Positions 28,665-54,381 are shown, numbered from the stretch's first letter. The stretch is DNA of 64,000 nucleotides from Phycisphaera mikurensis NBRC 102666 (GCA_943369765.1 CALROI020000006.1:89228-153227); one strand, 5' to 3'. Notes: generated by a model from the sequence alone, not told the origin. Numbers and translations: made by a program.

Positions 28665-30563
28665 TTAGGCCGTGATCTGCTCGGGCGTGATGCCCGCGTG
28701 CTCTAGGAGCTGGTAGAGGCGACCGATTGCCGTTCGACGCTGGGATTCCGAAGGTGCCCCAGGCGTTCTAGGTCGAGAGCGGCAAAAGGTGAAGAGAACG
28801 CGTTTCTTTGCCCTGGAGAACGCGACGAAAAAGCCTCGGGTCTCTTCTGCCGGGTTTCGTGCAAATGACCACAAAGCAGAATCTTCCAGTCCAACGAAGA
28901 TCACGCTGTGGTATTCAAGCCCCTTACTCTTGTGCATCGTCATGATGGGCACAGATCCTACGCCTTCGAGTGCATCAATCGCAGTTGGCCAGCTCTTTGT
29001 GTGAAGGTATGAGGTAATCTGCTTGCCAAGCGCCAGTAACGTGTCGTCGAGCAGAGTGCCTTGAGAATACTGCGGGAAAAAATGCCCAAGGCGATCAGGC
29101 TTCAAGAAAGTCACGATCGTTCCCATGATCGCCGCAACGCTTTCCGGTGTGACGGGTGTCGACGCGATCGTACCCCGAAGCGTTCGGATATAGCTGTCAA
29201 GGGATCGTTCAAGCCACCGGGTATCGCGATCGGCATCGTCTCCGTCGGAGTCAGTCAAGAAATCTAGTAGTTCCGTACGAGACTGTGGCGCCTTCGCTGT
29301 TGTTGCGAGCCTCAGAACATGAAGCACTAACGTGGAGACTGGCTCAGAGAGAAGATCTTGCAGTTCTGATTCGATACGGGCTTCAACGTGCTTTTCAGCG
29401 AGCGCGGTACGAACTGCTTCTGTGTAGTCTGCCGGACGATTGCGTGTCAGGATGCAGATGTCTCGCGGTGCGACACCCTCGTGATTGACCCACTCGGCGA
29501 TCAGGGCTGCGATATGCCGAGCCTCTGCATCGTGGTCTTGAAACAGGAGAACACGGCACTCACCCCGTCCCGTGCTACCGTCATCCATCGCTTCGGGAAC
29601 CGCGGCGTCGACATCGAGTTCGGCGGTCAAGACTCCCAAAATTCTAACCAGTTCAGGAGCCGAGCGGTAGTTTCGTACAAGTGAAATGCGACCTGCACCA
29701 AAATCGCTCCGGAACTCGGCGAACACGTCTTCCATAGCTCCGGCCCAACCCATGATTCGCTGCTTATTGTCACCTACAGCGGTCAGAACAGCTTGGGAGC
29801 CCAAAAACGCTGTTTTGGTGAGTTCGTACTGAATCTCTGTGGTATCCTGAAACTCGTCAAGGAAGACGAAGCCGTAGGTAGCGCGGAGCGCACGCAGGAT
29901 CTTCGGATTAGCGCGGAGCATGAGCTCAGCCAGCCGGCCGATCATCTGAAAATTTAACGCAGATTGACCACCATGGAGAAGCGAATAGGACCATAAGGCT
30001 ACTGCGGCGCGTGAACGAAGCGTTGTCGCAGGGGGTAGAACACTCGGCAAGGGTCTGCCGATGAAGTCCTCGATGTACATGTTCTGGGCATTTAACCCAG
30101 CCAAATCGCGGTCAGACAGCCCGCCCTCAGATTCTGGAATCTCAGCCAGCCGATCTCGCACACTGAAACTGCTCAACTTGAAGTCGAGGCGGTAATCTAC
30201 CGTGGGCATCCACGCAGTTGGCAGGGCATTACGAAAGCGATCTATGAGCCCTTTGGCAAAGGCGTCGAACGTCAACGAGTCAAACCGTTGCGCCAGATCC
30301 GAGCCACAGCGCTGCAAAACACGTTCTCGAAGATTCCGTGCGGCATCACGTTTGAAACTGATCGCCAGGATACGTGTGGGACGCGGGCAAAGGCCGGTCT
30401 GAAGCAGGTAACACGCACGCTGAGCGAGTAGTTCCGTCTTGCCCGCTCCTGGCCCCGCGATGACCACCCGATGCCCGGAGGATCGAACCGCTTCCTCCGC
30501 CGCGGGCTCAAGGCCATCTACTCCCACAGGACGCCATTCCGCTGGGCGAACCTTAGGTGACAT
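28665..30563 (-). CDS. gajB: UvrD/PcrA/Rep-family SF1 helicase, GajB-like (632 aa)
   Basis: Walker A VIAGPGAGKTE; motif II VFLDEFQDTT; LVRNYRSAPE; TMHKSKGLEYHSVIFVGL. Lies immediately downstream of the OLD-family gene and overlaps it by 11 nt. Confidence 0.85.
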   Translation of the reverse strand: MSPKVRPAEWRPVGVDGLEPAAEEAVRSSGHRVVIAGPGAGKTELLAQRACYLLQTGLCPRPTRILAISFKRDAARNLRERVLQRCGSDLAQRFDSLTFDAFAKGLIDRFRNALPTAWMPTVDYRLDFKLSSFSVRDRLAEIPESEGGLSDRDLAGLNAQNMYIEDFIGRPLPSVLPPATTLRSRAAVALWSYSLLHGGQSALNFQMIGRLAELMLRANPKILRALRATYGFVFLDEFQDTTEIQYELTKTAFLGSQAVLTAVGDNKQRIMGWAGAMEDVFAEFRSDFGAGRISLVRNYRSAPELVRILGVLTAELDVDAAVPEAMDDGSTGRGECRVLLFQDHDAEARHIAALIAEWVNHEGVAPRDICILTRNRPADYTEAVRTALAEKHVEARIESELQDLLSEPVSTLVLHVLRLATTAKAPQSRTELLDFLTDSDGDDADRDTRWLERSLDSYIRTLRGTIASTPVTPESVAAIMGTIVTFLKPDRLGHFFPQYSQGTLLDDTLLALGKQITSYLHTKSWPTAIDALEGVGSVPIMTMHKSKGLEYHSVIFVGLEDSALWSFARNPAEETRGFFVAFSRAKKRVLFTFCRSRPRTPGAPSESQRRTAIGRLYQLLEHAGITPEQITA

Positions 30564-32586
30564 CGCTGGGGCCTCCAGGGGCAAGTGCGAGCGTGTCACG
30601 CACTCGGTCGATCAGGCGAGCCAAAACCGGAGGACACCCATCGGTGAGTTGCGCAGCGCTCAATCGTGTCATGGCCTGTAGGTGTGAGGTCGGCTTTGAT
30701 CGGCCAAGGAAAAGGTAGCGATACCAGAAAAAGCCGTCCACCTCCGTAGACGTATAGGTACTGGCGGTTCCACTTCCGAGTACAGCGTGGATTGCTTCCT
30801 TACGCCGAGCGTCCAGCTCCGGCGCATCAGGCTTGGGAATTCGTGGTCCGAAGTTCCCTGGATCGACAACGCGGTACGCCACGGGAAAGGACTCTAGCAT
30901 CAGGGCATCAAGATCGAGCGGTGCTGAAAAGTAAACACCGTGAGCCTCTAGAGTGCTGCGCCATTGGTCTGTCGACAAAGTAAGGGGCCATTTCTCCATG
31001 CCATCCAGCTCAGCTTGAGAAAGTATGCGTGTGTCACCCTCCTTCGCGGCGACGACGAGCAGTGTGTCTCTCGGCACATTTACTGCGAGCAGCTGATTCA
31101 GCGCGTACTTGATGCGACCCCATCCCCCTCCATCGCGTTCTCGATCGAAATCCAGGAGAGTGAGATGGGGGATGTCCAGGCCAGCGAGCAGGCGCCAGAA
31201 GTGATTCACGTGCCGTCCGCCCAGCGGCACGATTGAGATAAAGCTCTGATCGATCGGGATGCCTGCGGCCTCGGCCAGACGTGGCAGCACGATTTCCTCG
31301 CTGTCCCCTTCTCCGAGGATCACAAGGCGTGCAAAATAGAGCTCCGGATATGCGCGAACGGCCTCCCGGACGAATGGATAGGCCTCATCGGTGGTTGCAG
31401 GCAGCGAAATGGACCTCACCTTGGTCGTATGGGTGGCTTGATCTAGGCGGAGGTGACGTACTTCCGTAGGGTCGATGCGGTGCATGATCGACGGTGAGTG
31501 ACTCGTTAACAGCACCTGCGCACGCGGTGATCGTTCAAGCTTGCGAAGGACGTCCATAATCCGGCCAAGGAAATGAGGCGAGATATGGTTCTCCGGCTCC
31601 TCGAAGGCGAAGACCGTCAGGGAAGGCGGATCGAGCCTGTCGAGATCGAATTCTCGCTCCTCCTCCTCGGCTTGGAGCGTCGCCTCTTCGATATCGAACG
31701 CGGCACCAACCATCGCGAGGTAAAACAAAGATCGCTGACCGTCGCTCAGCCGATCTAGAGGATCCTCTTCGCCTCCTGGCGAGGGAGTAAACACCGCCTC
31801 CACCTGCCGAAGAATGTCCTCGAAGCGATTGCTGATCGGTCTGATCTTCACTCCGCTGTACGCGGCTGCATCGTGGAGAGTTGTCCAGTTCGCACTCAGG
31901 GCGCCCTGAATCGACGTGACGGCGCCCTCTGCCGTGAAGGCGTCGAGGATATCGTTCGATGCGGCCGCCACGCTGCCCTTCACTTCATTGGACCACTTCA
32001 CGGCCTTGAACAGTCGGGCCATGATCGACCCTGAAACCTGTCGGATGTGCCTTGCAGGATCTCGCGAAGCAGGGACGTAGTGCAAGTGAACACGCGAGCG
32101 TTCAGATGCTCGCATTTCCCTCTTTGCTTCTTCATCCCCTTCAGCCGACGTGACCCAATAGGTGTGCTGCTCGATCGTTCCCTCGGGAAGGCTGCTTTCA
32201 GTCCACGTGCCTTCCAAACGTACGCGGCAATAGGGGGTGCCACCGGTTTCCGTAACCACCATCTGCCGAAAGCACTCTGCGATGCTGTCGTCGTCCGGCT
32301 CTTCCTTGGCCAGTTCGGGAAACTCCAGGATGGCTTCAATGGAGAGTGCTCGTTGCAGGATCGGAGCGGTCCCGGGAGAAGCGGCGCCGCGGGGAACGTG
32401 AAAATCCTCTCGCTTGAGCTCGCGATCGGGGCCGGTCATCCCAAAGACTCTCTGCAAACCTTGCAGAATAGCAGTCTTGCCACACGCATTGGTCCCGACA
32501 AACGCGGTAAGGTCTGTCAGCACAATTGTCGTGGGAGCTGGTCCGAAGCAGCGGAAGTTCGTAAGGGTGAGTGAAGTTAGACGCAT
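30553..32586 (-). CDS. gajA: OLD-family ATP-dependent endonuclease (ABC ATPase + TOPRIM), GajA-like (677 aa)
   Basis: N-terminal LTLTNFRCFG...FVGTNACGKTAIL (Walker A); ABC signature RLSDGQRSLF; Walker B VFAFEEPENHISPH; LLTSHSP. C-terminal TOPRIM LVILGEGDSEEIVLP ... LTLLDFDRERDGG. Confidence 0.85.
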   Translation of the reverse strand: MRLTSLTLTNFRCFGPAPTTIVLTDLTAFVGTNACGKTAILQGLQRVFGMTGPDRELKREDFHVPRGAASPGTAPILQRALSIEAILEFPELAKEEPDDDSIAECFRQMVVTETGGTPYCRVRLEGTWTESSLPEGTIEQHTYWVTSAEGDEEAKREMRASERSRVHLHYVPASRDPARHIRQVSGSIMARLFKAVKWSNEVKGSVAAASNDILDAFTAEGAVTSIQGALSANWTTLHDAAAYSGVKIRPISNRFEDILRQVEAVFTPSPGGEEDPLDRLSDGQRSLFYLAMVGAAFDIEEATLQAEEEEREFDLDRLDPPSLTVFAFEEPENHISPHFLGRIMDVLRKLERSPRAQVLLTSHSPSIMHRIDPTEVRHLRLDQATHTTKVRSISLPATTDEAYPFVREAVRAYPELYFARLVILGEGDSEEIVLPRLAEAAGIPIDQSFISIVPLGGRHVNHFWRLLAGLDIPHLTLLDFDRERDGGGWGRIKYALNQLLAVNVPRDTLLVVAAKEGDTRILSQAELDGMEKWPLTLSTDQWRSTLEAHGVYFSAPLDLDALMLESFPVAYRVVDPGNFGPRIPKPDAPELDARRKEAIHAVLGSGTASTYTSTEVDGFFWYRYLFLGRSKPTSHLQAMTRLSAAQLTDGCPPVLARLIDRVRDTLALAPGGPSDVT

Positions 32587-32949: not shown

Positions 32950-35055
32950 TTATCTCACGCGAAAAGCGACCTCCTTGCCGTCGACCGCGAGGGGTCGGTT
33001 GTCGGCGTCTTGTGCTTGGAGGGTGACGTCCTGATCGTCGGAAAGGCCGGTCATGGTCAGCGTGATCACGCAATCCTTGCTGACGAGAGCGGTTCCGTTC
33101 TTGAGAATCGCACCGTCCGCGGGCGAGGCGGTGACGCCCGTGATCGCGGCGTTCGCGCCCTTGAGCGTGAATGTCGGCAGACGGCGATCGCCGAAGGAGG
33201 CGAAGTTCACGGCGATAACGGCGACGGCCGTGCCGTTGGCTTTGTTGATGAACTTGGTTGAGGTCGTGAGCAGCGGGACCGGGTCAGGCGAGGGTGCCTT
33301 GATGGAGACGCGTTGGACCGGCATCGTAGTTGTGTGTCTGCCGGTGATAAACGCGGACTCGGCCGTGTTGAGAGTCACCGTGAGGCTGGGTGCCGTCACG
33401 ATACCCTTAAGCGGAGGGAACACGAGCTTGGCTTCGCCGCCCTTGCCCTCCAGCACCTGCTCGGGAAAGAACGTCCCGTTCGCCAGATCCGGCACGGTCA
33501 TCGCGCACTGCTCGGCTCGGATACGGCTGGCAAGGATGCCTGAGAGCGTGATGGTCCAAGACTTGCCGTCATCGAGCGCAAAGACATGCGTCGGGGGTGT
33601 CATCTGCGGCAGTGGGGGCTTGGCAATGGTGAAGCGTGCCCCCGAATACTGTGTTTTGGTCACCAGGCCAATGACCTCGATCCACAGTGACTCGGGCGTG
33701 ACTTCAGCGACGAGCTGGGAGCAGGCTGGAACCGATGCACGTCTCTTGAGTTCGGCAATCAGCAGGTTGGACCGATCGAGGAATCCTTGGTAGTCGTTCT
33801 CTTGCGCAACGACGGCAAGCTTCACGACCGATGCGATGTCGGACGATGTCAGCAGCGTTGACTGGCCAGGCAAGGCGAAGTAGGGGGCGATCTGCGCCAT
33901 GCCTTCTTGGACGAGGCGGGGGAAATCGAGCGGTTCGGATTCTTCTCCGTCCTTGGGATTGATGAGCGTTGTCTTAGCCGAGGCGAGGAGCTCGATGTCG
34001 GTACCTGACCCGCGGAGTTGTTGTGCCAAATCATTCGGAATCAGGACGAGTACCGAGACCTTGTGGGTCCTGGGGACAACCGAGGATGATCCCAAACCTG
34101 TGGGCACCGCGCCGAAGCGGGCACGAAGCGTGTTCTCAGAAAGACGGGCAACCGAGTACGAGCTGAACAACTGCTTGCCTAGGGAGGCTTCGATTTGCTC
34201 AAGGACGCGCTCGACCGAGCCACCGGCCGACACACGGTCGGCCGCAAGTCGCAAGCCGCCGGAGAGTGCACGAAGTTTGTCCAAACTCGCAGAGTTCACC
34301 ACCGATTCGAGGCTGTCTGTGCTGAGGAGCGGCACAACGCGAATACGCCGTGAGATCCCATCTGCGTTCGCGGCGTTGGGTCCCAGCAACGACGCCTGTT
34401 GGACCAGACGGGAGTCCGTGCTGGTCTGAGCGGGAAGGTTCTTTGACACGGCAAAGAATGCGATGTCGGCGTACACGTCACGCTCGAGCTTCTCCATGCG
34501 GGGCATGACACCGAGTTGAAGTTGAACGATGTGGCCTTCGTAGCCGGCGGGAACCGCGGCAGAGGCCACCGTGGCGTTGAGCATGGCCACCTGCTCAAAG
34601 AGCGATTGCGCGAGCTGGTACTCCAGAATACGGCTGGTGCGAAGGCTGCTGGATTGATCCAAGGCATCCTTGAAGCTCTGCGGGGGTGTGAAGGTGGGGG
34701 CACGCGGAGCCGAGCCCGGCAGTGCTGGGGCGGCGTCCTCGCCAACGCCCAGGGCATCGGGCGTGATGTCGAGGGAGAGTTCACCGCTGGCCCGTAACGC
34801 ATCAAGTGTTGAACGCGTCGAGACGCCGATCGTTGGGTTGACGAGCTTGACGGCATCGTCCCCGCTCAATTTGAAGTTGGGGCTGAGATTCTGACGGGCT
34901 GACTCAAAGCTCTCCACCGAGAGTACCGCCAGGTGGGTTGACGCCAAGCGGTCTTGACGGTCTTGGAAGATCCCGCATCCAGCCAGACTGACGAGGGACG
35001 CGGTGGTGACCACAGGCGTGATTATCCAAGTGCGGAGCGGGCGAAGGTGGTTCAT
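32950..35055 (-). CDS. Large hypothetical lipoprotein (701 aa), no recognised domain
   Basis: Start taken at MNHLRPLRTWIITPVVTTASLVSLAGC (lipobox). The upstream 59 codons of the ORF are Arg/Cys-rich read-through across an operator-like palindrome. The rest has ordinary amino-acid composition. Confidence 0.7.
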   Translation of the reverse strand: MNHLRPLRTWIITPVVTTASLVSLAGCGIFQDRQDRLASTHLAVLSVESFESARQNLSPNFKLSGDDAVKLVNPTIGVSTRSTLDALRASGELSLDITPDALGVGEDAAPALPGSAPRAPTFTPPQSFKDALDQSSSLRTSRILEYQLAQSLFEQVAMLNATVASAAVPAGYEGHIVQLQLGVMPRMEKLERDVYADIAFFAVSKNLPAQTSTDSRLVQQASLLGPNAANADGISRRIRVVPLLSTDSLESVVNSASLDKLRALSGGLRLAADRVSAGGSVERVLEQIEASLGKQLFSSYSVARLSENTLRARFGAVPTGLGSSSVVPRTHKVSVLVLIPNDLAQQLRGSGTDIELLASAKTTLINPKDGEESEPLDFPRLVQEGMAQIAPYFALPGQSTLLTSSDIASVVKLAVVAQENDYQGFLDRSNLLIAELKRRASVPACSQLVAEVTPESLWIEVIGLVTKTQYSGARFTIAKPPLPQMTPPTHVFALDDGKSWTITLSGILASRIRAEQCAMTVPDLANGTFFPEQVLEGKGGEAKLVFPPLKGIVTAPSLTVTLNTAESAFITGRHTTTMPVQRVSIKAPSPDPVPLLTTSTKFINKANGTAVAVIAVNFASFGDRRLPTFTLKGANAAITGVTASPADGAILKNGTALVSKDCVITLTMTGLSDDQDVTLQAQDADNRPLAVDGKEVAFRVR

Positions 35056-35183
35056 GGAGGGTCCTTGAGTGATGCGAACGTTGATGCCTTGCGGGCTGGT
35101 TTGTCGTTGGCGCGTGACGATATCCGGCCGTCCACGAGAACAGCGTCCCCATCGACCGCAAACGCGATGGTCTGGTGCGCGCA

Positions 35184-35205
35184 TTTGACACATAAATGTG
35201 TCAAA
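35184..35205. promoter_or_regulatory. 10-bp perfect inverted repeat TTTGACACAT-AA-ATGTGTCAAA, operator-like, ~130 bp upstream of the lipoprotein start
   Basis: Read directly from the sequence. An AT-rich palindrome in a GC-rich intergenic region, with TTGACA on both strands. Confidence 0.4.
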
Positions 35206-35397
35206 GGCACATTCGCGTATGGCGCCCATCATGAAGCTGCCTCAATCAGCGGTGCGATCCGCAGAGTTCCTCGATAGGCCCTCCCACGTTCCGAACGCCA
35301 AGCTGCGGCCACTTCACACCCAATGGTTTCCAGGGGGTGTTTGCCGGACCAGTTCCAGCCGAAGCGGGCGTCCTCTGCGTGAGGCGGGCAGGGATAC

Positions 35398-37005
35398 TCA
35401 GCACCCCGCCTCAAACGCCGTGACAAAGCTGTCGTAGTCGAAGAAGTCGAGAAACCCGTCGCCGTTGAAATCAGCTTCAAGCCCTCCGGCTTCAAAGGCA
35501 AGGACAAAGGCGTTGTAGTCGAAGAAGTCCAGAAACCCATCGCAGTTCGTGTCCGCCGCACAGACGGTGAGAGCCGCTGCCCTCGTGGAGGCATCTCCAC
35601 ACCCGTTTGTCACGACGCACCGATGCTCCCAGCGTGCAAAGGTACCGACACTCCGGCTCGGGTCGATGGTCACCGATGACGTGCGGACAGTGCTGGCGAC
35701 GAAGGCAACTGTGCCGCCCTGCGGATCGGTGTTGAGGCCCTCTCGCACGTTGATCCAGTCGGCCGACGGGCCGATCCGCCATTGCCACTGGTACGACAAC
35801 GGCCCTGGCCCCGACGCAAGTACAGAAAACACGGCAGGCGATCCTGGGCACGCCGAATCGTCTTGCGGCTGCTGTTGAATGGGGGCGGTCGTCAGGACCG
35901 ACAGAATCGCCGACTGGCTCGTGAGCGCTTCGCACGCATTTGAGATCGCACACGAATACGACCCCCCATCAAGGGGCTGGATGTTGGTCAGCACAAGTGT
36001 GTTTGTCGCCGCCGAAGGATTGCCACCTGGACCGCTGATGGGGATCACGACGCCATTCTTCTTCCACCGGAAGAAGACTTCAGCGCCACCGCTGTTGACG
36101 GTCACCCGAAACGAAACGCTCGATCCCGCACAGGCACTCTGACTGGTCGGCTGAGACTGAATCGACTGCGGGCTGTTGACGAACACGGAAGGACTTGAGT
36201 ACTGGTTGTTGCCGTTGTTGGACTCCAGAACGATGTTGTCCGGATCAATCAGAATCAACGCCTCGTAGTTATCGCACGCGCGTAACGATGCAGGCGGCAC
36301 GATGGTGTTTCGGAACGACGTATTCGTCTCTTGGCTCGCCATTGGCGGAAGGATCTGGCTCGTCGTGTAGACGACCACGCGGTCAGAGGTCCGCCGTACC
36401 AGCAATGTGCACGGCACGCCAGCGGGCGTTGGGCCGCCCAGGTTGCGCACATACGCGCTCACATAGATCGGCAGAGTTAGCTGAACGACACCCGTTGTTC
36501 GCGTGGCATCAAAGGTGTTCGAGACGACGACTTCACGGTCCCATCCCGTTGGCACGGGTGCGGTGAGATCCGGGCAGAACGGCGTCACGGTCACGTTGTT
36601 GCCAGCTCCCGTGAAACTCCGGGTAAAGGTGCCGCTGCCGGCATCGACGGTGACATCAAAGCCAAACGACCACGTGGTCACGCAGTTGTTCAAGACAGGC
36701 ATCGCGACCATGAGAACGACATCGCGGATCTGGTTTGCCGCAAGGGTGACGGGCGGGTTAAACGTCCTCGTCGTTGGAACCGCGGAAAGTGGCGGAGGTA
36801 CCGGGGCAGCAATTACCCGAACCGAGCGGAGCTGACCGCTGCCAGGACCGGTGTTGCGAACGCGAACCGTGACCTCCACTAATCCTCCGCTCGTGACCGA
36901 GCTCGGGGATCGTGTCAGGCTGTCGATCACAAACGTCTGGCCCATCACCCTCGAAAGGCACAGAAGATCCATCAGAATCACACACAGAACAACGGGCAAT
37001 TTCAT
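35398..37005 (-). CDS. Secreted Ig-like repeat protein with C-terminal GC-type dockerin-like tail (535 aa)
   Basis: Signal peptide MKLPVVLCVILMDLLCLSRVMGQ. Ig I-set-like segments (LVLTNIQPLDGGSYSCAISNACEALTSQSAILSV; WEHRCVVTNGCGDASTRAAALTV). Tail has two EF-hand/dockerin-like repeats (DTNCDGFLDFFDYNAFVLAFEAGG, DFNGDGFLDFFDYDSFVTAFEAGC) ending in G-C. Confidence 0.75.
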   Translation of the reverse strand: MKLPVVLCVILMDLLCLSRVMGQTFVIDSLTRSPSSVTSGGLVEVTVRVRNTGPGSGQLRSVRVIAAPVPPPLSAVPTTRTFNPPVTLAANQIRDVVLMVAMPVLNNCVTTWSFGFDVTVDAGSGTFTRSFTGAGNNVTVTPFCPDLTAPVPTGWDREVVVSNTFDATRTTGVVQLTLPIYVSAYVRNLGGPTPAGVPCTLLVRRTSDRVVVYTTSQILPPMASQETNTSFRNTIVPPASLRACDNYEALILIDPDNIVLESNNGNNQYSSPSVFVNSPQSIQSQPTSQSACAGSSVSFRVTVNSGGAEVFFRWKKNGVVIPISGPGGNPSAATNTLVLTNIQPLDGGSYSCAISNACEALTSQSAILSVLTTAPIQQQPQDDSACPGSPAVFSVLASGPGPLSYQWQWRIGPSADWINVREGLNTDPQGGTVAFVASTVRTSSVTIDPSRSVGTFARWEHRCVVTNGCGDASTRAAALTVCAADTNCDGFLDFFDYNAFVLAFEAGGLEADFNGDGFLDFFDYDSFVTAFEAGC

Positions 37006-37321
37006 CAGGGATCTCCTGCGGCAACGACAGTGACGGTGACGACCTCCACCCCATCTACCGAAAAGCAGCGTCGCGCCTGCGCGAAAAAGTGCCATCGTGC
37101 GCTCGGTGCCGGAGCGACCGCGAAATCCTTGCGTTCGCAGTCTGGCTGGGTGAGCGCCTCCGGATCGCGTTTCCCACGGTAAAGGGGAATGCCATGCGTC
37201 AATCGACGGGATGCGGCGCGATCGGTGGACAGCACCCCACCGATCCGTCTCGTCCAACCTCATCCACATTGAAAAGGAAGGGAGTTCAGCACGTTCGTTC
37301 GTGCGAGCCGACATGGCTCGT

Positions 37322-37732
37322 TCATTCGGAATCAGGAGGTGCGAACCGTTCGTCGCACCAGATGATCCTGCCACCGCGGAGGAAGAAGTGCGATCCGCAC
37401 CCTTTGCGGCGCCAGATGGAGGGCACGAGGGTTGGGCGGTTGTTCGCCTTACTCAGAGTCCAGTGTGGCCGGTCCGCTTTCAGCAACGTGACGGTGATCG
37501 TGTCGCCACAACCACATGGACAAAGCAGTGACGCGAACCAAAAACTGCCTTGTTCTCCAACGACGTACAGCGTGAGCGTGTCAAGCGAGACGGGCAGGTC
37601 GCTCGCGAGCACGACTCGGAAGTAATCGGAGGAGTGGACCTCCGTGCTGGTGGGTTGAAGGCTCGGGGATGCGAAGAGCGATCCAAGCCATCGTGCGATC
37701 GTGGACACCGCTCGACGCAGCAGGAAGATCAT
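37322..37732 (-). CDS. DUF6527-like Cys-rich small protein (136 aa), third gene of the Ub-like conjugation operon
   Basis: Cys cluster LLCPCGCGD ... RRKGCGSHFFLRGGRIIWC (zinc-ribbon-like). ATGA overlap with the E1 gene. Family name recalled from memory of co-occurrence with multi-ubiquitin/ThiF genes. Confidence 0.7.
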   Translation of the reverse strand: MIFLLRRAVSTIARWLGSLFASPSLQPTSTEVHSSDYFRVVLASDLPVSLDTLTLYVVGEQGSFWFASLLCPCGCGDTITVTLLKADRPHWTLSKANNRPTLVPSIWRRKGCGSHFFLRGGRIIWCDERFAPPDSE

Positions 37733-39114
37733 TTGGTCGGTCCTCCAAGGGCTGGAAGTCCGAGTGGTGGATTTGTATCAGCGCGGCCCACGTGCTTCGC
37801 CATGACCGCACACGCCTGCTCGGGTTCAGCTTCGTGAGAGGCCTGCGCATTCACAAGGCTGAGCCGCGTCACCGCAAACGCGTGGTTGGGATCCAGACGA
37901 AGGCCTGGATGAAGTCGGCACAAGAACTCGTTAACAGCGGTGGTCGCCGCCAGGGTGTTGAGGCTGATGACGGCAGGGCTCGTCACGTCCACGTTCGCGA
38001 TGTACTTGTTGCGGCGCTGCTCTTCGTACGCTGTTCGATTTGTGCGGCGCAGTGATTCGGCTCGCACGTGCTCCATGGTGTATACGCCTCGGCTAAGGAG
38101 GCTTGATCGTCCTGGCTGCACATAGTGGATTCCCATTCCATCTTGAGAGATGCCGCCTTTGCCATCCGCCTCCAAACGCACACCCATGTCGATGTACGGG
38201 AGGAGGTAGTGGGTGGCAAGCCGTGACAAGAGGTGTCGGCCTTCGGCGGAATCCATGCATCCGAAGACGACATCAGCACCAGAAACAGCGTGCAGCGCGT
38301 TGGGTTCATGGATCAGCTGCCGAACCGGTGTCACGCGTGTGCCTAGGCCCGTTGACCGGATTCGATCGGCCAAGACATCGACTTTGGGCCGTCCCACGTC
38401 TGCACGTGTCGAGCCGTAGATTCGATTCAGATTCCGGTCTTCGATCGTGTCAGGGTCCACAAGAACAAGGTGGCCAACACCCAACCGCATCAGCATCTCA
38501 ATGGTGGGGCTGCCGGTACCTGAGCATCCGAGAACGGCAATGGACAATCGCTGCAGCCGCTCGGTCGTGCCTGGTCCGAACACCTGCCGCTGGTCGGCTG
38601 GGGCGGACCCAAGTGACGGCAGGCTTGGCCCCCATGCGAGAATGTCATCACCGGCAATCGTGATCAAGGCGACATCTGAGAACCGCCCGTCCGGGTCGAT
38701 CGTGCGAGCGAACAGCGAACCGTCAGGAAGCATGACGGCCGAAGCGTGTGGTTCGTCGCTATCAATCCAGCCGTAGACCGAGGAAAAAACAGCACGATCA
38801 GACACGTCATCAACGCGAGAAAACTGTCGGTAGCCTGTCGGGTGAGAGTGGATCTTGAGCAGAGCCATTCCCTCACGGCTGGCTCTGGACAGGATCGGTG
38901 GGAGCACGTCACTTGGCCAGGTGATGTGCTGATCCGATCGCTCGCATCGCGCATGAGGGATTGGGATCACCTCGTGGACGCACAGAACATGAGGATCGCC
39001 ATGCCGTCGCCCGCACAGGGCGAATGAAGCAGCCTCCTGCCCGTCGCCGGGAAAGAGGTGCGCTTTGAGTTCTTCATGATGGCGTCCGCTCAAGCGAAGG
39101 TGGACACGCATCAT
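37729..39114 (-). CDS. JAB/JAMM metallopeptidase fused to a ThiF/E1-like adenylyltransferase (461 aa)
   Basis: JAMM motif: upstream Glu (GDGQEAASFALCG) plus HSHPTGYRQFSRVDD (HxHx7SxxD). E1 Rossmann IAVLGCSGTGS, VDPDTIEDRNLNRIYG and Cys-containing VVFGCMDSAEGR. Confidence 0.85.
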   Translation of the reverse strand: MMRVHLRLSGRHHEELKAHLFPGDGQEAASFALCGRRHGDPHVLCVHEVIPIPHARCERSDQHITWPSDVLPPILSRASREGMALLKIHSHPTGYRQFSRVDDVSDRAVFSSVYGWIDSDEPHASAVMLPDGSLFARTIDPDGRFSDVALITIAGDDILAWGPSLPSLGSAPADQRQVFGPGTTERLQRLSIAVLGCSGTGSPTIEMLMRLGVGHLVLVDPDTIEDRNLNRIYGSTRADVGRPKVDVLADRIRSTGLGTRVTPVRQLIHEPNALHAVSGADVVFGCMDSAEGRHLLSRLATHYLLPYIDMGVRLEADGKGGISQDGMGIHYVQPGRSSLLSRGVYTMEHVRAESLRRTNRTAYEEQRRNKYIANVDVTSPAVISLNTLAATTAVNEFLCRLHPGLRLDPNHAFAVTRLSLVNAQASHEAEPEQACAVMAKHVGRADTNPPLGLPALGGPTK

Positions 39115-39818
39115 CGCGACAGCTCCTTCTCAAGCCAGTGATCCACCATGAGAAGGTGCGTACCGAGGTTATCGATGCCCACACGCCAAGGATTGGCGGG
39201 TGTTCGGTGGCGTGACCACTGCTGAAAGGCTCGGGAATCCAGCGCTCGCTCGGTGGCCGCGTGGATGGGTTTGCCGTCGACGCGTGCGACGGGCGGGTTG
39301 AAGAATACCATGTCGATCTGGGCGTCTGGATAGGTGGTCGGGAGCAGGAGGGCTGCGTTGACCTTTGTCTCGTTGTAGCCGTTGGGCAGCGCGTAACTGT
39401 GCATGATCACCCAGTGCTCCCCGCCCTGGATCACGGTTTCGTACGCCAAGCCGCGTTCTTTCAGTGCTTGAGCGTCCTCAGGAAGCAGGTTGAAGTCGCG
39501 GCGAAGCTCAAGTCCATCGGTGGGATCGATGGGAATCGTCTGAAAGCGCTCGATCCCAGGAGCCGTAAAGTCGACCAAGGTCGTGGGATTGAGCAACTGG
39601 GGTTCTTGGCCGCGGTGCTTTTGGTACAAGCGATGCGAGGTCGAAGATTTGCCCGCGAGGTTCAAGATCGCCTCGGCGGTCATGGCCCCCACGTCAACCA
39701 CGTAGTACTCGCGGTCTACCCGGATGCGGTAGCGGCGCCCACCGGGCGGGCGTTCGTTTCGCTGCGACCACACTTCGAGATCGATCGGTTCACCGGGAGC
39801 AGAAGGCGGAATCGTCAT
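39111..39818 (-). CDS. Multi-ubiquitin (beta-grasp) domain fused to a Prok-E2_E-like UBC-fold domain (235 aa, contains no cysteine)
   Basis: N-terminal RRYRIRVDREYYVVDVGAMTAEAILNLAGKSS...LVDFTAPGIERFQTIP resembles the multi-ubiquitin family. C-terminal HWVIMHSYALPNGYNETKVNAALLLPTTYPDAQIDMVFFNPPVARVDGKPI resembles prokaryotic E2 family E. Start taken at ATG 39818 (RBS GAAAGGA); ATGA overlap with the JAB-E1 gene. Confidence 0.75.
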   Translation of the reverse strand: MTIPPSAPGEPIDLEVWSQRNERPPGGRRYRIRVDREYYVVDVGAMTAEAILNLAGKSSTSHRLYQKHRGQEPQLLNPTTLVDFTAPGIERFQTIPIDPTDGLELRRDFNLLPEDAQALKERGLAYETVIQGGEHWVIMHSYALPNGYNETKVNAALLLPTTYPDAQIDMVFFNPPVARVDGKPIHAATERALDSRAFQQWSRHRTPANPWRVGIDNLGTHLLMVDHWLEKELSR

Positions 39819-39954
39819 GGTCAGGTCCTTTCGTGTCGCTTTCGAGCTTGCCGCTGGTCCTTCCAGACAGTCCAAGTTCTCGGGCGATGTACTGAAAGCG
39901 TAGATTCAATGGCCAGAAAGTCAACAAAGAACAAACAAAAAACATCCGTAGGCC

Positions 39955-39983
39955 TTGCATTTCCCGTGGAAATCGCGTATAGT
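39955..39983 (+). promoter_or_regulatory. Sigma70-like promoter TTGCAT-17 nt-TATAGT with embedded palindrome ATTTCC-CGT-GGAAAT (candidate RHH operator)
   Basis: Read directly from the sequence. Located 21 nt upstream of the RHH ATG (40004), in the divergent intergenic region shared with the Ub-like operon. Confidence 0.45.
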
Positions 39984-40003
39984 CAGTGGTGAGAGGTGCA
40001 AAA

Positions 40004-40231
40004 ATGAATGACCACGGACTACCTGACAAACGCCAAATGACCCTGTCGTTGTCGGACGCTGAGATGGGCGTTTTGGACGCGCTGTCGACGCACAAAGGGC
40101 TTTCCAAGACCGCCCTCATTCGCCAAGCCCTTCGGCTCTACCAAGTGGTCGACACTCGGCTGGCAGCCGGAGAGCGGCTCTTTTTGGAAGACGAGCGCCA
40201 GCAGAAAAAGGCTGAGGTCGTGGTGCTATGA
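40004..40231 (+). CDS. Ribbon-helix-helix (CopG/Arc-like) antitoxin-like protein (75 aa)
   Basis: RQMTLSLSDAEMGVLDALSTHKGLSKTALIRQALRLY fits a beta-alpha-alpha RHH. ATG 40004 is preceded by GAGAGG. The stop overlaps the GNAT start (ATGA). Confidence 0.7.
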   Translation: MNDHGLPDKRQMTLSLSDAEMGVLDALSTHKGLSKTALIRQALRLYQVVDTRLAAGERLFLEDERQQKKAEVVVL

Positions 40232-40869
40232 GCCACAGGGTTCGAGCCGTGCAGCTTCCACAACGAGATGGAAGCACACACCTCCCGTGTGACGTGCTCG
40301 CGGAAGTGTCGAATCTTGAGTTGATCGGCATGGACGAAACCTGGCATCGAGAGCGGGCCGCGATCATGCGCGCCATGCTTGAGCGCGAGATTCCACGCGA
40401 AGTGTGGCCGCAGAGTCTGCATTGGGACTGGAGTCGGAAGATTCTGGCCGAGCCTCAACTGAGTCGCGCCATTTACGGAATTCGGGCCGGCGAGCGGTGG
40501 CTTGGGGCGATGCTGCTGCGTCTTGACCCTCGGTTCGACCGAGCGAGGCTGGAACCGCATCGAGGTCGCCCGCTTGTCTATGTGGACTATGTGGAATCGG
40601 CACCGAGCAACTGGCCCATTCCGCAGTTGAATCAGCGTTCGTCCGTCAAGCGAATCGGAACCACACTGGTGTTGGCAGCGATGGCACGCTCGCGGAACGA
40701 GGAGTTTGAAGGGCGCGTGGGTCTTCATGCTCTGCCGCAGTCGGAAAGATTCTACGAGGGGATGGGATTTACCAGTCTGGGTCCGGATTCGACAAAGCAG
40801 GGGCTGGTGTATTTCGAGGTGTCTGGGGCCAAAGCCCAGGAGGTATTGAGCCAAGGAGGTTGGACATGA
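40228..40869 (+). CDS. GNAT-family acetyltransferase, toxin-like partner of the RHH protein (213 aa)
   Basis: GNAT motif-A-like RIGTTLVLAAMARSRNEEFEGRVGLHALPQSERFYEGMGF. Genetic coupling to the RHH gene as in TacAT/AtaRT-type TA pairs. Confidence 0.7.
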   Translation: MSHRVRAVQLPQRDGSTHLPCDVLAEVSNLELIGMDETWHRERAAIMRAMLEREIPREVWPQSLHWDWSRKILAEPQLSRAIYGIRAGERWLGAMLLRLDPRFDRARLEPHRGRPLVYVDYVESAPSNWPIPQLNQRSSVKRIGTTLVLAAMARSRNEEFEGRVGLHALPQSERFYEGMGFTSLGPDSTKQGLVYFEVSGAKAQEVLSQGGWT

Positions 40870-41354
40870 CGCTGCAGCCAAACGATGAGCAGAATTCCTT
40901 TCTGAGAGAGCTCGGGCTCTTGGAAGAAGCATGCGGCACGGTGGCAACCGGCGGCTTTGTCGTCGATTGTGGATGGTGGAAAGGCGGCCGTCCTGCAAGC
41001 GACATGCAGGGCGCGGCGTTTGCTCGGTTCATCGAACTGTGGCGTCGAAGCAAGGGATGGACGGTCGAACGGTTTTCCATCGAAGCACGCGTGGACATTG
41101 TGGAATTGCTCGTGCTGGAAATGGGCTCCACCAGACCCGCCGAGCCCCGGACTATCTTTCAGCTTGCAGGCGTCACAGGCGTTCCCGTCGGAAAACTCAT
41201 GGATCTCGCTGGACTTTCAAGCACCAGAGACCCCCAGGTGGGAAGTGCCGCTGTTCGTTTCGCCGCGCAGTCGGAGTCCATGGCAAAGCTCACGCGCGAG
41301 GAAGAAGATGCCTTACAGGCATTGCTTCGAATTCTGACGTCCGAGCAGCGATAG
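40866..41354 (+). CDS. XRE-family HTH protein (162 aa)
   Basis: HTH segment FARFIELWRRSKGWTVERFSIEARVDIVELLVLEMG...IFQLAGVTGVPVGKLMDLAGL. ATG 40866 overlaps the GNAT stop (ATGA) and follows AAGGAGG. Confidence 0.7.
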   Translation: MTLQPNDEQNSFLRELGLLEEACGTVATGGFVVDCGWWKGGRPASDMQGAAFARFIELWRRSKGWTVERFSIEARVDIVELLVLEMGSTRPAEPRTIFQLAGVTGVPVGKLMDLAGLSSTRDPQVGSAAVRFAAQSESMAKLTREEEDALQALLRILTSEQR

Positions 41355-41368
41355 AATATCACCGAAAG

Positions 41369-42295
41369 GTGGTGTCTCGCGTGATCGAAGTCAGCCTACC
41401 CTTATCCACACGCCATGATATCGATCGGCGAATTGACCGTCTGCTTGCAGACGTGGGTCAACCAGAGCCACCTCTCAATCTGGCCCATGTGCGTGCGCTG
41501 CTCAAGTTCGATCTGCGATACTACACGCTTGAAGATCCAACTTGGCTCGAAGGCAAGATCCACACGATTCGGCTTGCGGGAAGAAATCTCGTGCAGGAGC
41601 CGCGGCTCTTGTTGCAGGTTGTCAGGAAGCTGAGTCTGCGAGCACTCTTTGTGCCTGATCGTCAACAGATTCTGATCGACCAAAGCTTGCCGTCGCCCAA
41701 GCAGCGGTGGGGGGAGGGACACGAGCTCACCCACGCCATTCTGGACTGGCATGCGCCTTATGCCCACGGAGATCAGGAACGCACGCTCGCCGTTGGCTGC
41801 CATGCCGCCATTGAAGCCGAGGCCAACTATGGGGCCGGCAGGATGCTGTTTCTGGGAAAGCGCTTCATCGATGAGAGCCGCAGTGCGCCGCTGTCGATCG
41901 ATCGCATCAAGTACTTGGCCAGAATCTACGGCAACAGCGTGACGGCGACCTTGTGGCGAGCCACGGAGAATTCCGATCAGCCCGTCATGGGCATGCTCAG
42001 TACTCATCCGTGGGATCCCGCGGACTCAATGGGTAGCCCACGTATCCGGCGCATGTTCTGCTCGCCGTCCTACATCAAGCAGTTCGCGTCGCTTGATCCC
42101 GAGGTCGTGTTCCGAAAGTTGGCAAAGGTGGTCACCCGGCGCGGCGGCGGTTTGCTCGGCGCCGAGACGATCGATCTTGCTGACAGTAACGGAGACCGTC
42201 ACGAGTTTCATGCCGAGTGCTTCAACAACACGCACGACATCCTAACGCTGCTCGTTCATCGGCAACAGAAACCTACCGTGATCGTGGCGTCCTAA
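41369..42295 (+). CDS. ImmA/IrrE-family zinc metallopeptidase (COG2856-like), about 308 aa
   Basis: HEXXH in WGEGHELTHAILDWH, with surrounding COG2856-like context (LFVPDRQQILIDQSLP..., EAEANYGAGRMLF). Start is uncertain (GTG 41369, 41372 or 41381, after GAAAGG). The upstream part of the 454-aa ORF overlaps the XRE gene out of frame and is Arg-rich. Confidence 0.7.
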   Translation: MVSRVIEVSLPLSTRHDIDRRIDRLLADVGQPEPPLNLAHVRALLKFDLRYYTLEDPTWLEGKIHTIRLAGRNLVQEPRLLLQVVRKLSLRALFVPDRQQILIDQSLPSPKQRWGEGHELTHAILDWHAPYAHGDQERTLAVGCHAAIEAEANYGAGRMLFLGKRFIDESRSAPLSIDRIKYLARIYGNSVTATLWRATENSDQPVMGMLSTHPWDPADSMGSPRIRRMFCSPSYIKQFASLDPEVVFRKLAKVVTRRGGGLLGAETIDLADSNGDRHEFHAECFNNTHDILTLLVHRQQKPTVIVAS

Positions 42296-46645: not shown

Positions 46646-47014
46646 TTACGGGTTGTTTCCCGAGCTTCCGGGCCGCCTAAAGATGCGTTGTGCTCTGATA
46701 TACGCCGCTACGCGATCAGTTGACCGCGTGCTTGCCGTCGCGTCATTGGAAGGGGTCGACGCCGTGGGGGAACTCAGAGATACTCCAGGCCCGGGAGGAC
46801 TCAGCGGTCGGGCGTCGGAACAAGACCGCTGTTCGTGTGTCCTGACAAACTTCTCAAGCTCGGTGGTGCGGACAAGCATGCGCCGTCCAATCCGAACGAT
46901 CGTCAACTGGCCAGCCTTCCAGGCTCGGACAAGGGTACTGCGATGCACACTCAACAGATCGGCCGCCTCATTTAGACTCAATAGCCGCTGACTCTGTTCC
47001 GAAACGATCGGCAT
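46646..47014 (-). CDS. Excisionase-family / MerR-like HTH DNA-binding protein (122 aa)
   Basis: LSLNEAADLLSVHRSTLVRAWKAGQLTIVRIGRRMLVRTTELEKFV is typical of excisionase-type HTH. The start is uncertain (ATG 47014 chosen; an upstream in-frame ATG exists). Confidence 0.65.
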   Translation of the reverse strand: MPIVSEQSQRLLSLNEAADLLSVHRSTLVRAWKAGQLTIVRIGRRMLVRTTELEKFVRTHEQRSCSDARPLSPPGPGVSLSSPTASTPSNDATASTRSTDRVAAYIRAQRIFRRPGSSGNNP

Positions 47015-47221
47015 CGGACCGCCTGTTGGGTCGGCCGAGGAGCCAGTGTGAGGGGCGTGGCCGTCCGGAGTGATAGGAAGGATGTGCGGTGGATGATCAA
47101 TCATGCCGCAATGTGGTACCAAGCGGAAGTCCACAGGTCTGTGGAAAGCCCCGATCCGGGAGCACGAATCTGAGTGAGTCACGGAGCTATACTTGCGATC
47201 ATGGGGTGGGAAAAGGAGCTC

Positions 47222-47789: not shown

Positions 47790-48425
47790 TCACCGACCGC
47801 CATCGAGCTTCACGAGTTGCAGCCGTGCCCAATCCTTCCAGGCGTCGGACTCGCCACGCATGGCGATCTCGCTGAGCTTGGTACGGAGTTCGGCGCGGGC
47901 TTCGGGGTCGCGTTCGGGACGCGTGGTTCCGAAAGAGGCCGCTTTGGATTGCGCCGGGTGTAGGAGTTCGAGGCGTGCGAGTTGCTGGAGGCTCGCGATG
48001 TGGCCGGGGTGGATCTGCAGCGCGGTACGGGCGTGGTCGGCGGCCTGGTCGTAGCGGCCCGCGGATTCCAGCGTGAGCGAGAGGTTGAGGCGTGGGTCGG
48101 GGTGGCCCGGAAGGAGTTTGCGGGCCCATTCGAACTCGCCGGCGGCCTCGTAGAGCTTGTTCTGCTTGAGGAACAGCACGCCGAGGTTGTTGTGCGCGGG
48201 GCCGTGGTAGAGGTCGGCGGCGAGGGCTTCGCGGAGCAGTTGCTCTGCCTTGGCGGGCTCAGCCTGCATGAGCGCGGCGGCTTCTTGATTGAGCCCGTCG
48301 GCTTTGGACGTGTCGCGCCGCTCGGGATCGAGGGGTGTGTAGGCCGTGCTCGGGCCGGATTTGCACGAGGCGAGCGTGGCGAGGGGAACAATCAGGGCGA
48401 TGGTGACGAGGCAGGTGAGACGCAT
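47790..48425 (-). CDS. TPR-repeat lipoprotein (211 aa)
   Basis: MRLTCLVTIALIVPLATLASC lipobox. TPR-like repeats (AEQLLREALAADLYHGPAHNNLGVLFLKQNKLYEAAGEFEWARKL...). Last gene of the secretin cluster. Confidence 0.75.
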   Translation of the reverse strand: MRLTCLVTIALIVPLATLASCKSGPSTAYTPLDPERRDTSKADGLNQEAAALMQAEPAKAEQLLREALAADLYHGPAHNNLGVLFLKQNKLYEAAGEFEWARKLLPGHPDPRLNLSLTLESAGRYDQAADHARTALQIHPGHIASLQQLARLELLHPAQSKAASFGTTRPERDPEARAELRTKLSEIAMRGESDAWKDWARLQLVKLDGGR

Positions 48426-48444
48426 GGGAAATCCTTGCGGGGGT

Positions 48445-48990
48445 TTACTGAGGGCTCGGGCTGGTGACAGGGGACGCGAGGTACGTCGTGGCGAGGGTGA
48501 GTCGGGCGTCGTAGGTTGAGTTGGTGTCGGCCTCGCCCCCCGCGTGCGTGCAGTCGATGCGGGTCACGATCCACGCGGGTTCAGCGGTTCGCCACGCGGC
48601 GAAGAACTGGCCGAGTTGGCGCGTCGTGATCGGGGTGAGCGAGACGGTGATGTTTTGGCGGCGGTACGCGGGGCTGGTCGGGTCGTTCGAAGGCAGGGCT
48701 TCGTCGGAGCCTGGATTGACCGCGCGGAGGGAAGATTCGCCCACACCGGCGGCGGCGAGCGAAGCGCGGAGCGCGGTGCTGACGCTTTCGGTGGGCTTGG
48801 AAGCGAGGAGGGCGGTTTGACGCTGGGGACGCAGGCGTTCGACATCGGCCAGTTGCTGCGAGAAGGCTTTCGCCTGCGTGCGGGCGAGATTTGCATCTGA
48901 CGAGGCTGACGCGGCACGCCACGCGGAGAACGCCGCGCCCGCGATGGCGATGACAGCGACCGCGCGGATCATGACGAGGGCGGCGGTCAT
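48445..48990 (-). CDS. GspM/PilO-like membrane assembly protein (181 aa; by topology and synteny)
   Basis: N-terminal TM segment ALVMIRAVAVIAIAGAAFSAW followed by a coiled coil. The start overlaps the previous stop (ATGA). The upstream part of the 259-aa ORF is Arg-rich read-through. Confidence 0.5.
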   Translation of the reverse strand: MTAALVMIRAVAVIAIAGAAFSAWRAASASSDANLARTQAKAFSQQLADVERLRPQRQTALLASKPTESVSTALRASLAAAGVGESSLRAVNPGSDEALPSNDPTSPAYRRQNITVSLTPITTRQLGQFFAAWRTAEPAWIVTRIDCTHAGGEADTNSTYDARLTLATTYLASPVTSPSPQ

Positions 48991-54188: not shown

Positions 54189-54306
54189 GCCGCGAGTGTA
54201 CCAGAAGTCGCAGGCAGCCGTCGTTCGACATCGCTTCGGTAGGCACGCGAACGCACGTCGAACGCAGATTTATCGATTCGTGGCATGCGAAACTCGGAAC
54301 ACCTGC

Positions 54307-54335: not shown

Positions 54336-54381
54336 GCGATCCAGTGTCGCGAGACTTTGCCCTGTCGATGGAGCCCAATCG

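Follow-up and report, generated by a model that had tools for sequence, protein, structure and literature searches.

A very probable Type I Bub operon beside Gabija on an integrase-bearing genomic island

The 64,000-nt stretch analysed here (assembly GCA_943369765.1, CALROI020000006.1:89228-153227; hereafter 'the window', with positions counted from its first letter) carries three minus-strand genes, between 39818 and 37322, that very probably form an intact Type I Bub (bacterial ubiquitination-like) operon on an integrase-bearing island, beside a Gabija system. The genes, bubAB, bubCD and bubE, were defined by open reading frame (ORF) calling in the window (Table 1). An ATGA is present at both gene junctions on the minus strand (39114-39111 and 37732-37729), so that the three-gene coupling described in the first-pass annotation, which was made from the sequence alone, is borne out, and an AAGGA Shine-Dalgarno-like box lies 9 nt 5' of the bubAB ATG at 39818. 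Independent gene calling on a Logan short-read contig returned the same three gene models, with bubAB starting at the same ATG. The motifs quoted in the first-pass annotation were all found in the translations (HSHPTGYRQFSRVDD, GCSGTGS, DPDTIEDRNLNR, CPCGCGD, GCGSHFF and IIWC).

Profile searches located five domains in the three proteins (Multi_ubiq, Prok-E2_E, Prok-JAB, ThiF and DUF6527), all above the Pfam cut-offs. The first reading had assigned the genes to an operon type predicted by Iyer, Burroughs and Aravind, and its ubiquitin-like (Ubl)-E2, JAB-E1 and DUF6527 parts are all identified. These '6E/DUF6527' operons were renamed Bub in 2024, and Type I (6E.1/DUF6527) Bub was described as comprising BubAB (Ubl-E2), BubCD (JAB-E1) and BubE (DUF6527) (bioRxiv 2024.11.21.623953). 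The framing of the architecture as novel is thus superseded, since it was characterised in that year as Type I Bub; the locus is a further example of a known system and not a new kind of system.

To survey relatives, one genome per GTDB species was scanned with a two-sequence BubCD alignment, giving 152 relatives, of which 80 loci were kept. The kept relatives are 43-52% identical to the window protein, the nearest being from Planctomycetota, Gemmataceae and Abditibacterium metagenome-assembled genomes. The order BubAB-BubCD-BubE is kept in 78-79 of the 80 loci and, because these come from many phyla, the three-gene arrangement is far beyond chance. The catalytic residues of the Bub paper all map one-to-one onto the window proteins, and among 77-81 genomic relatives and 94 database homologs they vary little or not at all. 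Sequence and structure comparison establishes what the parts are, and the assignment to Type I Bub is made because domains, gene order, defining residues and matches to solved structures agree.

The N-terminal part of BubAB matched Multi_ubiq at residues 30-95 (E 3.3e-7, 30.8 bits against a cut-off of 24.5). An AlphaFold2 model of BubAB, built on the 94 database homologs, has a mean predicted local distance difference test (pLDDT) score of 94. From the N-terminus it runs through a short helix, one beta-grasp (~30-96), a linker modelled with lower confidence (97-112) and the E2 domain (113-234). Foldseek matched the beta-grasp to residues 155-229 of BubA (9ea8_B, TMt 0.81) and also to the multi-ubiquitin proteins 9cd2 and 8u38. 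Of the proposed multi-ubiquitin/E2 fusion, the Ubl-E2 fusion therefore stands on the Pfam and Foldseek matches, whilst the several ubiquitin domains do not: 'multi-Ub' is the name of a Pfam family only, and the model contains one Ubl domain. Since 40% of the Bub operons catalogued have a single-domain Ubl, this is ordinary variation.

Gly102 sits in the lower-confidence linker of the BubAB model and is invariant in 43 of 43 fused homologs and in the 94-sequence database alignment. An independent mark of its role is provided by loci at which the fusion is absent. bubA and bubB are separate genes in 38 of the 77 related loci that could be classified (L004-L081), and the standalone BubA ORFs stop exactly at the aligned Gly in 26 of these 38 and carry 1-9 more residues in the other 12. 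Their C-termini, of the form '...D-Q-T-E-G*', align with the window sequence 'IDPTDG102 | LELRRDF'. Because standalone BubA genes end at or just past the aligned Gly, this sequence comparison marks Gly102 as the predicted mature, activatable C-terminus of the Ubl. The split loci would also qualify the statement of Ye et al. (bioRxiv 2024.11.21.623953) that Type I operons are all fusions.

The E2 half matched Prok-E2_E at BubAB residues 111-232 (E 2.4e-36) and the solved Citrobacter BubB (9eav_D/9eae_C) at E 6e-29, with the WSRHR and LDM motifs aligned. The E2 model superposes on 9eae_C with a TM-score of 0.93 and a root mean square deviation of 1.2 A (Foldseek). Citrobacter D299, S333 and H335 correspond to D169, S202 and H204 of the window protein; S202 and H204 are kept in 80/80 relatives of the genome survey and D169 in 75/80, and all three are invariant in the 94-sequence alignment. 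BubAB contains no Cys residue at all.

In BubCD, Prok-JAB was matched at residues 12-117, just above threshold (E 1.2e-5, 25.6 bits against a cut-off of 25), and ThiF at 177-312 (E 1.6e-33). Residues 8-457 align with the solved Citrobacter BubCD (9ea4_A; E 1e-78, 39% identity). Once the residue mapping had been corrected for the two residues by which a tag shifts the numbering of the PDB chain, the Citrobacter JAMM residues E28, H91, H93 and D104 correspond to E27, H89, H91 and D102, and the E1 residues R227 and crossover-loop Y370 to R231 and Y371. The JAMM residues are kept in 80-81 of 81 sequences (E27, H89 and D102 in all 81), and R231 and Y371 are likewise 81/81 invariant. The stretch between residues 287 and 398 is free of Cys. 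Thus the intact JAMM motif fused to a ThiF/E1 domain that was noted at the outset is upheld by both the profile matches and the one-to-one residue mapping.

The third protein had been described as a 136-aa DUF6527-like protein carrying the three Cys-rich motifs listed above, which agrees with its translation and with a DUF6527 (PF20137) match at residues 65-126 (E 8.7e-23). Its N-terminus reads MIFLLRRAVSTIARWLGSLFASPSL. The spacing of the BubE residues matches that in Citrobacter, with C57/C59/C61/C99 corresponding to C71/C73/C75/C112 and S92/H102 to S105/H115. S105, C112 and H115 are present in 77/77 sequences, C71 and C75 in 76/77 and C73 in 73/77. A BubE sequence search against the PDB gave chance-level matches only, which fits the absence of a solved BubE structure. 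The statement that the role of this Cys-rich protein is not established is outdated: Ye et al. describe BubE as a weak, zinc-stimulated or zinc-stabilised Ser-His peptidase that removes conjugates (bioRxiv 2024.11.21.623953).

In the relatives no conserved gene follows bubE as a fourth operon member, and neither of the two genes that come after bubE in the window has a homolog beside another Bub operon. For these reasons the functional unit, as defined by gene conservation, is the three genes.

The expected chemistry was taken from the characterised system. Bub conjugation proceeds via oxyesters on an E1 Tyr and an E2 Ser, the JAB domain cuts BubAB after a conserved Gly (G229 in Citrobacter), and the Citrobacter equivalents of Ser202, His204 and Tyr371 are needed if conjugates are to form, both in vitro and in E. 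coli (bioRxiv 2024.11.21.623953). By homology to that system, bubAB would be translated as a pre-protein and the BubCD JAMM site (Glu27, His89, His91, Asp102) would cut it after Gly102 to give a 102-residue BubA and a 133-residue BubB. The E1 domain of BubCD (Arg231) would adenylate Gly102 and then hold BubA as an oxyester on Tyr371, from which BubA would pass to an oxyester on Ser202 of the E2, assisted by His204 and Asp169, and on to target lysines. BubE, as a putative zinc-stabilised Ser105-His115 peptidase with a hydrophobic tail, would remove or limit the conjugates.

Table 1. Coordinates of the operon and of the associated features in the window
Feature	Position	Strand	Description
bubAB	39111-39818	(-)	235 aa from ATG; ORF open back to TTG at 39875
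bubA part of bubAB	39513-39818	(-)	residues 1-102; one beta-grasp ~30-96; ends at Gly102 (...IDPTDG)
bubB part of bubAB	39111-39512	(-)	residues 103-235; Asp169, Ser202, His204; cysteine-free E2
bubCD	37729-39114	(-)	461 aa
bubC part of bubCD	38620-39114	(-)	JAB/JAMM metallopeptidase, ~residues 1-165; Glu27, His89, His91, Asp102
bubD part of bubCD	37729-38619	(-)	ThiF-type E1 adenylation domain; GCSGTGS nucleotide loop, Arg231, crossover-loop Tyr371, no loop Cys
bubE	37322-37732	(-)	136 aa
bubE, predicted features	37322-37732	(-)	hydrophobic N-terminal extension; putative C4 zinc site Cys71/73/75/112; putative Ser105-His115 dyad
Mirror copy of bubAB-bubCD-bubE	15099-17595	(+)	identical; left palindrome arm
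Terminator-like hairpin and T-run	37071-37084	(-)	consensus scan; ~240 nt 3' of bubE; weak (4 sites against 2.2 expected by chance in the region)
Putative divergent control region	39819-40003	.	TGGCCA 39910-39915 abutting AAGTCAA 39918-39924
RHH protein (cassette gene 1)	40004-40231	(+)	Pfam RHH_1 4.7e-5
GNAT acetyltransferase (cassette gene 2)	40228-40869	(+)	213 aa; Pfam Acetyltransf_10 8.5e-6
XRE-type HTH protein, CapH/DdrO-like candidate repressor (cassette gene 3)	40866-41354	(+)	164 aa
M78/IrrE-family zinc peptidase, CapP-like (cassette gene 4)	41381-42295	(+)	HELTH at 41720-41734; Glu at +27 from second His
Conserved cassette	40004-42295	(+)	also in L030, L034, L056, L069, L083-L162
gajA	30553-32586	(-)	PADLOC GajA 2e-248; Pfam OLD-like TOPRIM and AAA_15/21
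gajB	28665-30563	(-)	PADLOC GajB 5.5e-216; Pfam UvrD helicase
Tyrosine integrase	45300-46490/46613	(-)	right-hand island end
HTH_17 excisionase-like gene	46646-47182	(-)	right-hand island end

The operon is seen twice because the window is palindromic: when reverse-complemented, positions 1-27458 equal 27459-54916 exactly (0 mismatches), the two arms adjoining without a spacer, and the Gabija genes, the regulatory cassette and the integrase described below are also duplicated in the left arm. The centre, 27458|27459, reads ...GCGCAGTATA|TATACTGCGC..., and the symmetry runs to the left edge of the window, so it may extend further. This 55-kb palindrome around the operon had been missed in the first-pass annotation. 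A Logan contig from run ERR9580560 (k=31 de Bruijn graph) equals window positions 27444-47913 exactly; it ends 15 nt past the centre, as a graph of this kind does on meeting a fold-back, and its other end coincides with a jump in GC from ~0.60 to 0.68. A perfect palindrome of at least 55 kb is most likely an assembly fold-back chimera, although it may be the read-around of a hairpin telomere. The second operon copy is probably no real duplication and is not to be counted as biology. Exact look-ups of the centre-adjacent ORF (300-aa and 338-aa versions), made for sequence past the centre, found nothing on record. The argument that a fold-back inside a gene marks an artefact was dropped: an in-frame ATG lies 15 nt to the right of the centre and the gene may be complete.

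Divergent from bubAB, and 185 bp away, lies a cassette of four overlapping or abutting plus-strand genes for a ribbon-helix-helix (RHH) protein, a GNAT acetyltransferase, an XRE-type helix-turn-helix (HTH) protein and an M78-family peptidase. The last two resemble the regulator pair CapH+CapP, and likewise DdrO/IrrE and ImmR/ImmA, in which an XRE HTH protein is followed by an M78 peptidase with HExxH and Glu at +27, divergent from a defence operon. The M78 protein was matched by PADLOC capP (2e-14), by Pfam Peptidase_M78 at 17.6 bits, under the cut-off, and among solved structures only marginally by IrrE. Its HExxH and the Glu at +27 are kept in 38 relatives, with spacing identical to that of CapP H97/E98/H101/E128. 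Relatives of the HTH protein carry PF01381/PF12844. The GNAT protein had no PADLOC match, and a sequence search of the PDB gave no relative at E <= 1 and hence no match to a solved GNAT toxin.

CapH+CapP modules adjoin CBASS and Bub, being found beside 31% of known Bub operons, and the window pair likewise adjoins Bub. The pair considered here differs in always being preceded by RHH and GNAT genes, in the position of the conserved Cys of its M78 protein (see below) and in ~45 additional, poorly modelled residues at the N-terminus of its HTH protein. The words RHH, GNAT and acetyltransferase are absent from the Bub and CapH/CapP papers searched. On the analogy with CapH+CapP, bubAB expression is probably controlled from the 185-bp intergenic region by the adjacent cassette, with its CapH/DdrO-like candidate repressor and its CapP/IrrE-like metallopeptidase. 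Since CapH+CapP pairs derepress defence operons upon CapP sensing of single-stranded DNA, the trigger here would most likely be DNA damage or phage infection. The trigger had been called not established in the first-pass annotation, but DNA damage acting via CapH/CapP-type regulators has already been proposed in the literature.

The cassette recurs elsewhere. The same four genes in the same divergent layout flank Type I Bub in four GTDB genomes from different phyla, and a metagenome scan anchored on the GNAT protein gave 364 relatives, of which 80 loci were kept. Where the flank suffices, these loci also contain the RHH gene (62/64), the HTH gene (60/63) and the M78 gene (31/39). Among the 28 loci with enough flank, the divergent cargo is Type I Bub in six and another E1-containing operon in three. 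At one locus, L137, PADLOC identified a full Type III CBASS (cyclase 3.6e-149, HORMA 1.5e-85, TRIP13 7.5e-135, SAVED-nuclease 1.4e-207), and seven more cassette loci show the Type III CBASS gene-size pattern.

In 69 cassette loci the 160 nt ahead of the RHH gene contain on average 1.88 copies of the palindromic hexamer TRGCYA, against 0.12-0.15 in controls (~15-fold), and an AAGTCAA/TTGACTT box is present in 22 of the 69 regions against 1.6% of controls. The two together resemble an operator with a -35 element, set between cassette and cargo. In the window the AAGTCAA at 39918-39924 reads TTGACT, a -35-like element, on the bubAB strand, and a promoter-like pair, TTGCAT-17 nt-TATAGT, faces the cassette. 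We infer the promoter and operator assignments from this comparative motif enrichment and from inspection by eye.

An RHH gene followed by a GNAT gene with a 4-nt overlap fits the layout of GNAT-RHH toxin-antitoxin pairs such as TacAT and AtaRT. Those pairs typically have a DUF1778-type antitoxin and have a GNAT of ~160-175 aa, whereas the window has RHH_1 and 213 aa, and the nearly constant presence of HTH-M78 behind RHH-GNAT would be unusual for a free-standing toxin-antitoxin pair. That the four genes are a hitherto undescribed portable control module for defence operons, with RHH-GNAT as its functional second tier, is possible but rather improbable. Such a tier could be an acetylation switch on a repressor, comparable to the CapK/CapS kinase-repressor pair, or a toxin arm released with the cargo. 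RHH-GNAT could also simply be a co-travelling toxin-antitoxin pair.

On the other side of the operon, the overlapping gajA and gajB genes encode the OLD-family ATPase-TOPRIM and UvrD-like helicase proteins that define Gabija. The right-hand island end carries the integrase and an excisionase-like gene, and the island, at a GC of 0.55-0.62, meets a flank of ~0.68 GC, presumably host chromosome, at ~47.9 kb. A tRNA scan of the window found none, and hence no tRNA-linked att site; nor could an att repeat be delimited, since the fold-back has removed the opposite end of the island. The placement in a defence island proposed at first is thus supported, with Gabija, an integrase and the CapH/CapP-like pair on the same low-GC segment, and the output of Bub here would most likely be antiphage or stress defence.

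Between bubE and Gabija (32950-37005, minus strand) lie two further genes, one for a 535-aa secreted Ig_3/CARDB protein with an EF-hand/dockerin-like C-terminal repeat and the other for a 701-aa lipoprotein-like protein with no Pfam match. These two proteins and the other island ORFs have no homologs in the 160 related Bub and cassette loci and were rejected as parts of the system. The high-GC flank carries a type II secretion or type IV pilus-like cluster at 47790-54188 (minus strand), with genes for a TPR protein, an ATPase of the T2SSE family (E 1.7e-117) and a secretin in which both Secretin_N and Secretin domains were matched. At 53752-63697 (plus strand), a giant ORF of 3136 aa with no Pfam match is overlapped downstream by a gene for a SUKH-1/SMI1-KNR4 immunity-type protein (63143-63697, E 5.7e-13), the layout of a polymorphic toxin with its immunity gene.

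Several observations weigh against the reading of the locus as an intact, regulated Bub defence operon. PADLOC (2023), the library of which predates Bub, gave for the three proteins only generic Cap2 E1-E2 matches to the adenylation core and none for BubAB or BubE, a result that, given the age of the library, does not count against the assignment. The predicted oxyester chemistry, cleavage site and BubE activity are all carried over from a single system, that of Citrobacter, whose BubCD is 39% identical. The JAMM site stays conserved though BubA already ends in Gly in 26 of the 38 split loci. As to regulation, the HTH protein had no direct Pfam or PADLOC match and no sequence relative among solved structures; its model has a pLDDT of 74 and the top Foldseek matches, to DdrO (6jq1, E 0.03) and other XRE repressors, with the N-terminal domain of CapH (7t5u) at TMt 0.71, have E-values of 0.03 or worse, making its CapH-like assignment, from modelling, weak. 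The conserved Cys of the M78 protein is at +22, 5 residues before the Glu, against ~+13 for the CapP cysteine switch; in the description of CapP, the C-terminal GAF domain binds single-stranded DNA and the cysteine-switch loop is not in all homologs. The window carries a single copy of the operator-like hexamer (TGGCCA), and a consensus promoter scan of 36900-40300 found no sites at threshold. Finally, antiphage activity has so far been demonstrated for no Bub operon.

The conservation of the JAMM site bears on the function of the JAB domain. Ye et al. suggest that JAB may serve 'primarily or solely' for pre-protein cleavage (bioRxiv 2024.11.21.623953). Because the JAMM residues are invariant even where no cleavage is needed, sequence conservation suggests, contrary to that proposal, that the JAB domain of Type I Bub does more than process the pre-protein.

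The strongest rival explanation keeps the same biochemistry but gives it a role outside antiphage defence, as a DNA-damage or stress module or in maintenance of the mobile element, for example by modifying host or element proteins during induction. No antiphage phenotype is reported for Bub, whose authors write of 'antiphage immunity or stress response' and recommend that roles other than immunity be considered; the regulators resemble DdrO/IrrE and ImmR/ImmA, which act in damage responses and element mobilisation; and the operon is on an integrase-bearing island. Set against this are the Gabija system on the same island, two genes from bubE, the pairing of the same regulator cassette with Bub cargo at some loci and with Type III CBASS at others, and the antiphage activity of the related Bil and CBASS systems. 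We regard a non-antiphage role as a serious possibility, but the less probable one.

It is very improbable that the operon is enzymatically dead or non-conjugating, its proteins being scaffolds or an adenylation/peptidase pair, as in the earlier bioinformatic view. No Cys is present in BubAB or in the E1 crossover loop, and the 6E E2-like proteins were formerly predicted to be inactive (bioRxiv 2024.11.21.623953). However, the 80-94 relatives, drawn from many phyla, keep Ser202, His204 and Tyr371 without exception (100%), which argues for catalytic constraint, the Citrobacter equivalents are required for conjugates both in vitro and in E. coli, and the proteins of the window, none of them truncated, can be aligned with active enzymes over their whole length.

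A sulfur-carrier or cofactor/siderophore pathway (ThiS/MoaD-like with ThiF/MoeB-like and JAB; compare CysO-Mec+ and QbsE-QbsD) is suggested by the sub-threshold NCBIfam similarity of the E1 domain to ThiF, MoeB and UbaA and by the JAB/beta-grasp pairing, which is also known from sulfur-transfer operons, but is scarcely conceivable: the NCBIfam scores fall far under the curated cut-offs (e.g. 81 against 275 bits), the E2 and the DUF6527 peptidase are obligate partners, the neighbourhood contains no gene for a rhodanese, for cysteine synthase or for thiazole/molybdopterin synthesis, Bub machinery is the best structural and sequence match, and the locus lies within a mobile defence island. With only sub-threshold ThiF/MoeB-type matches from NCBIfam, the cofactor-biosynthesis reading was rejected.

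No more credible is a cysteine-dependent Bil (BilABCD) or Type II CBASS (Cap2/Cap3) system in place of Bub: the PADLOC E1-E2 (Cap2) models do match the E1 domain (9e-16) and the JAB, E1, E2 and Ubl logic is common to all, but the Cap2 matches are limited to the adenylation core (residues 184-306), no CD-NTase or effector was matched in the ten neighbouring ORFs scanned, E1 and E2 lack a catalytic Cys, JAB is fused to a lone E1 domain of the homodimer type in place of an IAD-AAD-CYS arrangement, and DUF6527 is present.

As a Type I Bub operon, the locus adds a divergent and compact example, with one beta-grasp and probably from a planctomycete. Its minimal 102-residue Ubl, full regulator cassette and Gabija neighbour make it a handy unit for probing the antiphage role and the inducer of Bub, whilst cassette cargo swapping, the operator-like motif and the split bubA/bubB genes ending in Gly are leads on regulation and on the role of JAB.

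The closest characterised system is the Type I Bub of Citrobacter sp. RHBSTW-00271 (PDB 9ea4, 9ea5, 9ea8, 9eae, 9eav), with which the window shares gene order, both fusions and the catalytic residues. Common to the two are also the absence of a catalytic Cys, a BubE with a hydrophobic N-terminal tail, and association with a mobile element and a CapH/CapP-type regulator. The Citrobacter BubCD is 39% identical to that of the window, against 51-52% for the nearest species-representative genome. The window Ubl has one beta-grasp (102 aa), in contrast to three (229 aa) in Citrobacter, and thus the calcium-dependent filaments described for three-domain Ubls need not apply to it. In the window, unlike in Citrobacter, the regulator pair lies within a four-gene cassette with an additional RHH-GNAT, and the host, an enterobacterium in the case of Citrobacter, is here probably planctomycete-like, with ~68% GC.

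Type II Bub (6E.2; E. coli ZDHYS365 BubA, BubBD, BubE) appears analogous in having a DUF6527 BubE, a multi-ubiquitin-family Ubl and E1 Tyr/E2 Ser oxyester chemistry, which is presumed for the window. It has an E2-E1 fusion and a standalone Ubl, is usually without JAB, and has Lys and His beside the Ser of its E2; the JAB-E1 and Ubl-E2 fusions of the window, and its E2 Ser with His and Asp, place the locus outside Type II. The kinship to CBASS Cap2/Cap3 and to Bil that was noted at the outset is real, in that the Ubl/E1/E2/JAB logic is shared and both profile and structure matches were obtained. To our knowledge, Bub is the sole ubiquitin-like conjugation system that uses oxyester rather than thioester intermediates. 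Type II CBASS consists of a CD-NTase and effector with a Cap2 E2-E1 fusion and the Cap3 JAB, a combination that the window does not have. Bil (BilABCD) shares Ubl, E2, JAB and E1, the lack of an E3 and the defence-island setting, but it uses thioesters (an E1 CYS domain and an E2 Cys), is encoded by separate genes without DUF6527, and has a known target, a phage tail protein, whereas the locus in the window, where the one ThiF domain is joined to JAB, the E2 lacks Cys and DUF6527 is encoded, falls outside Bil.

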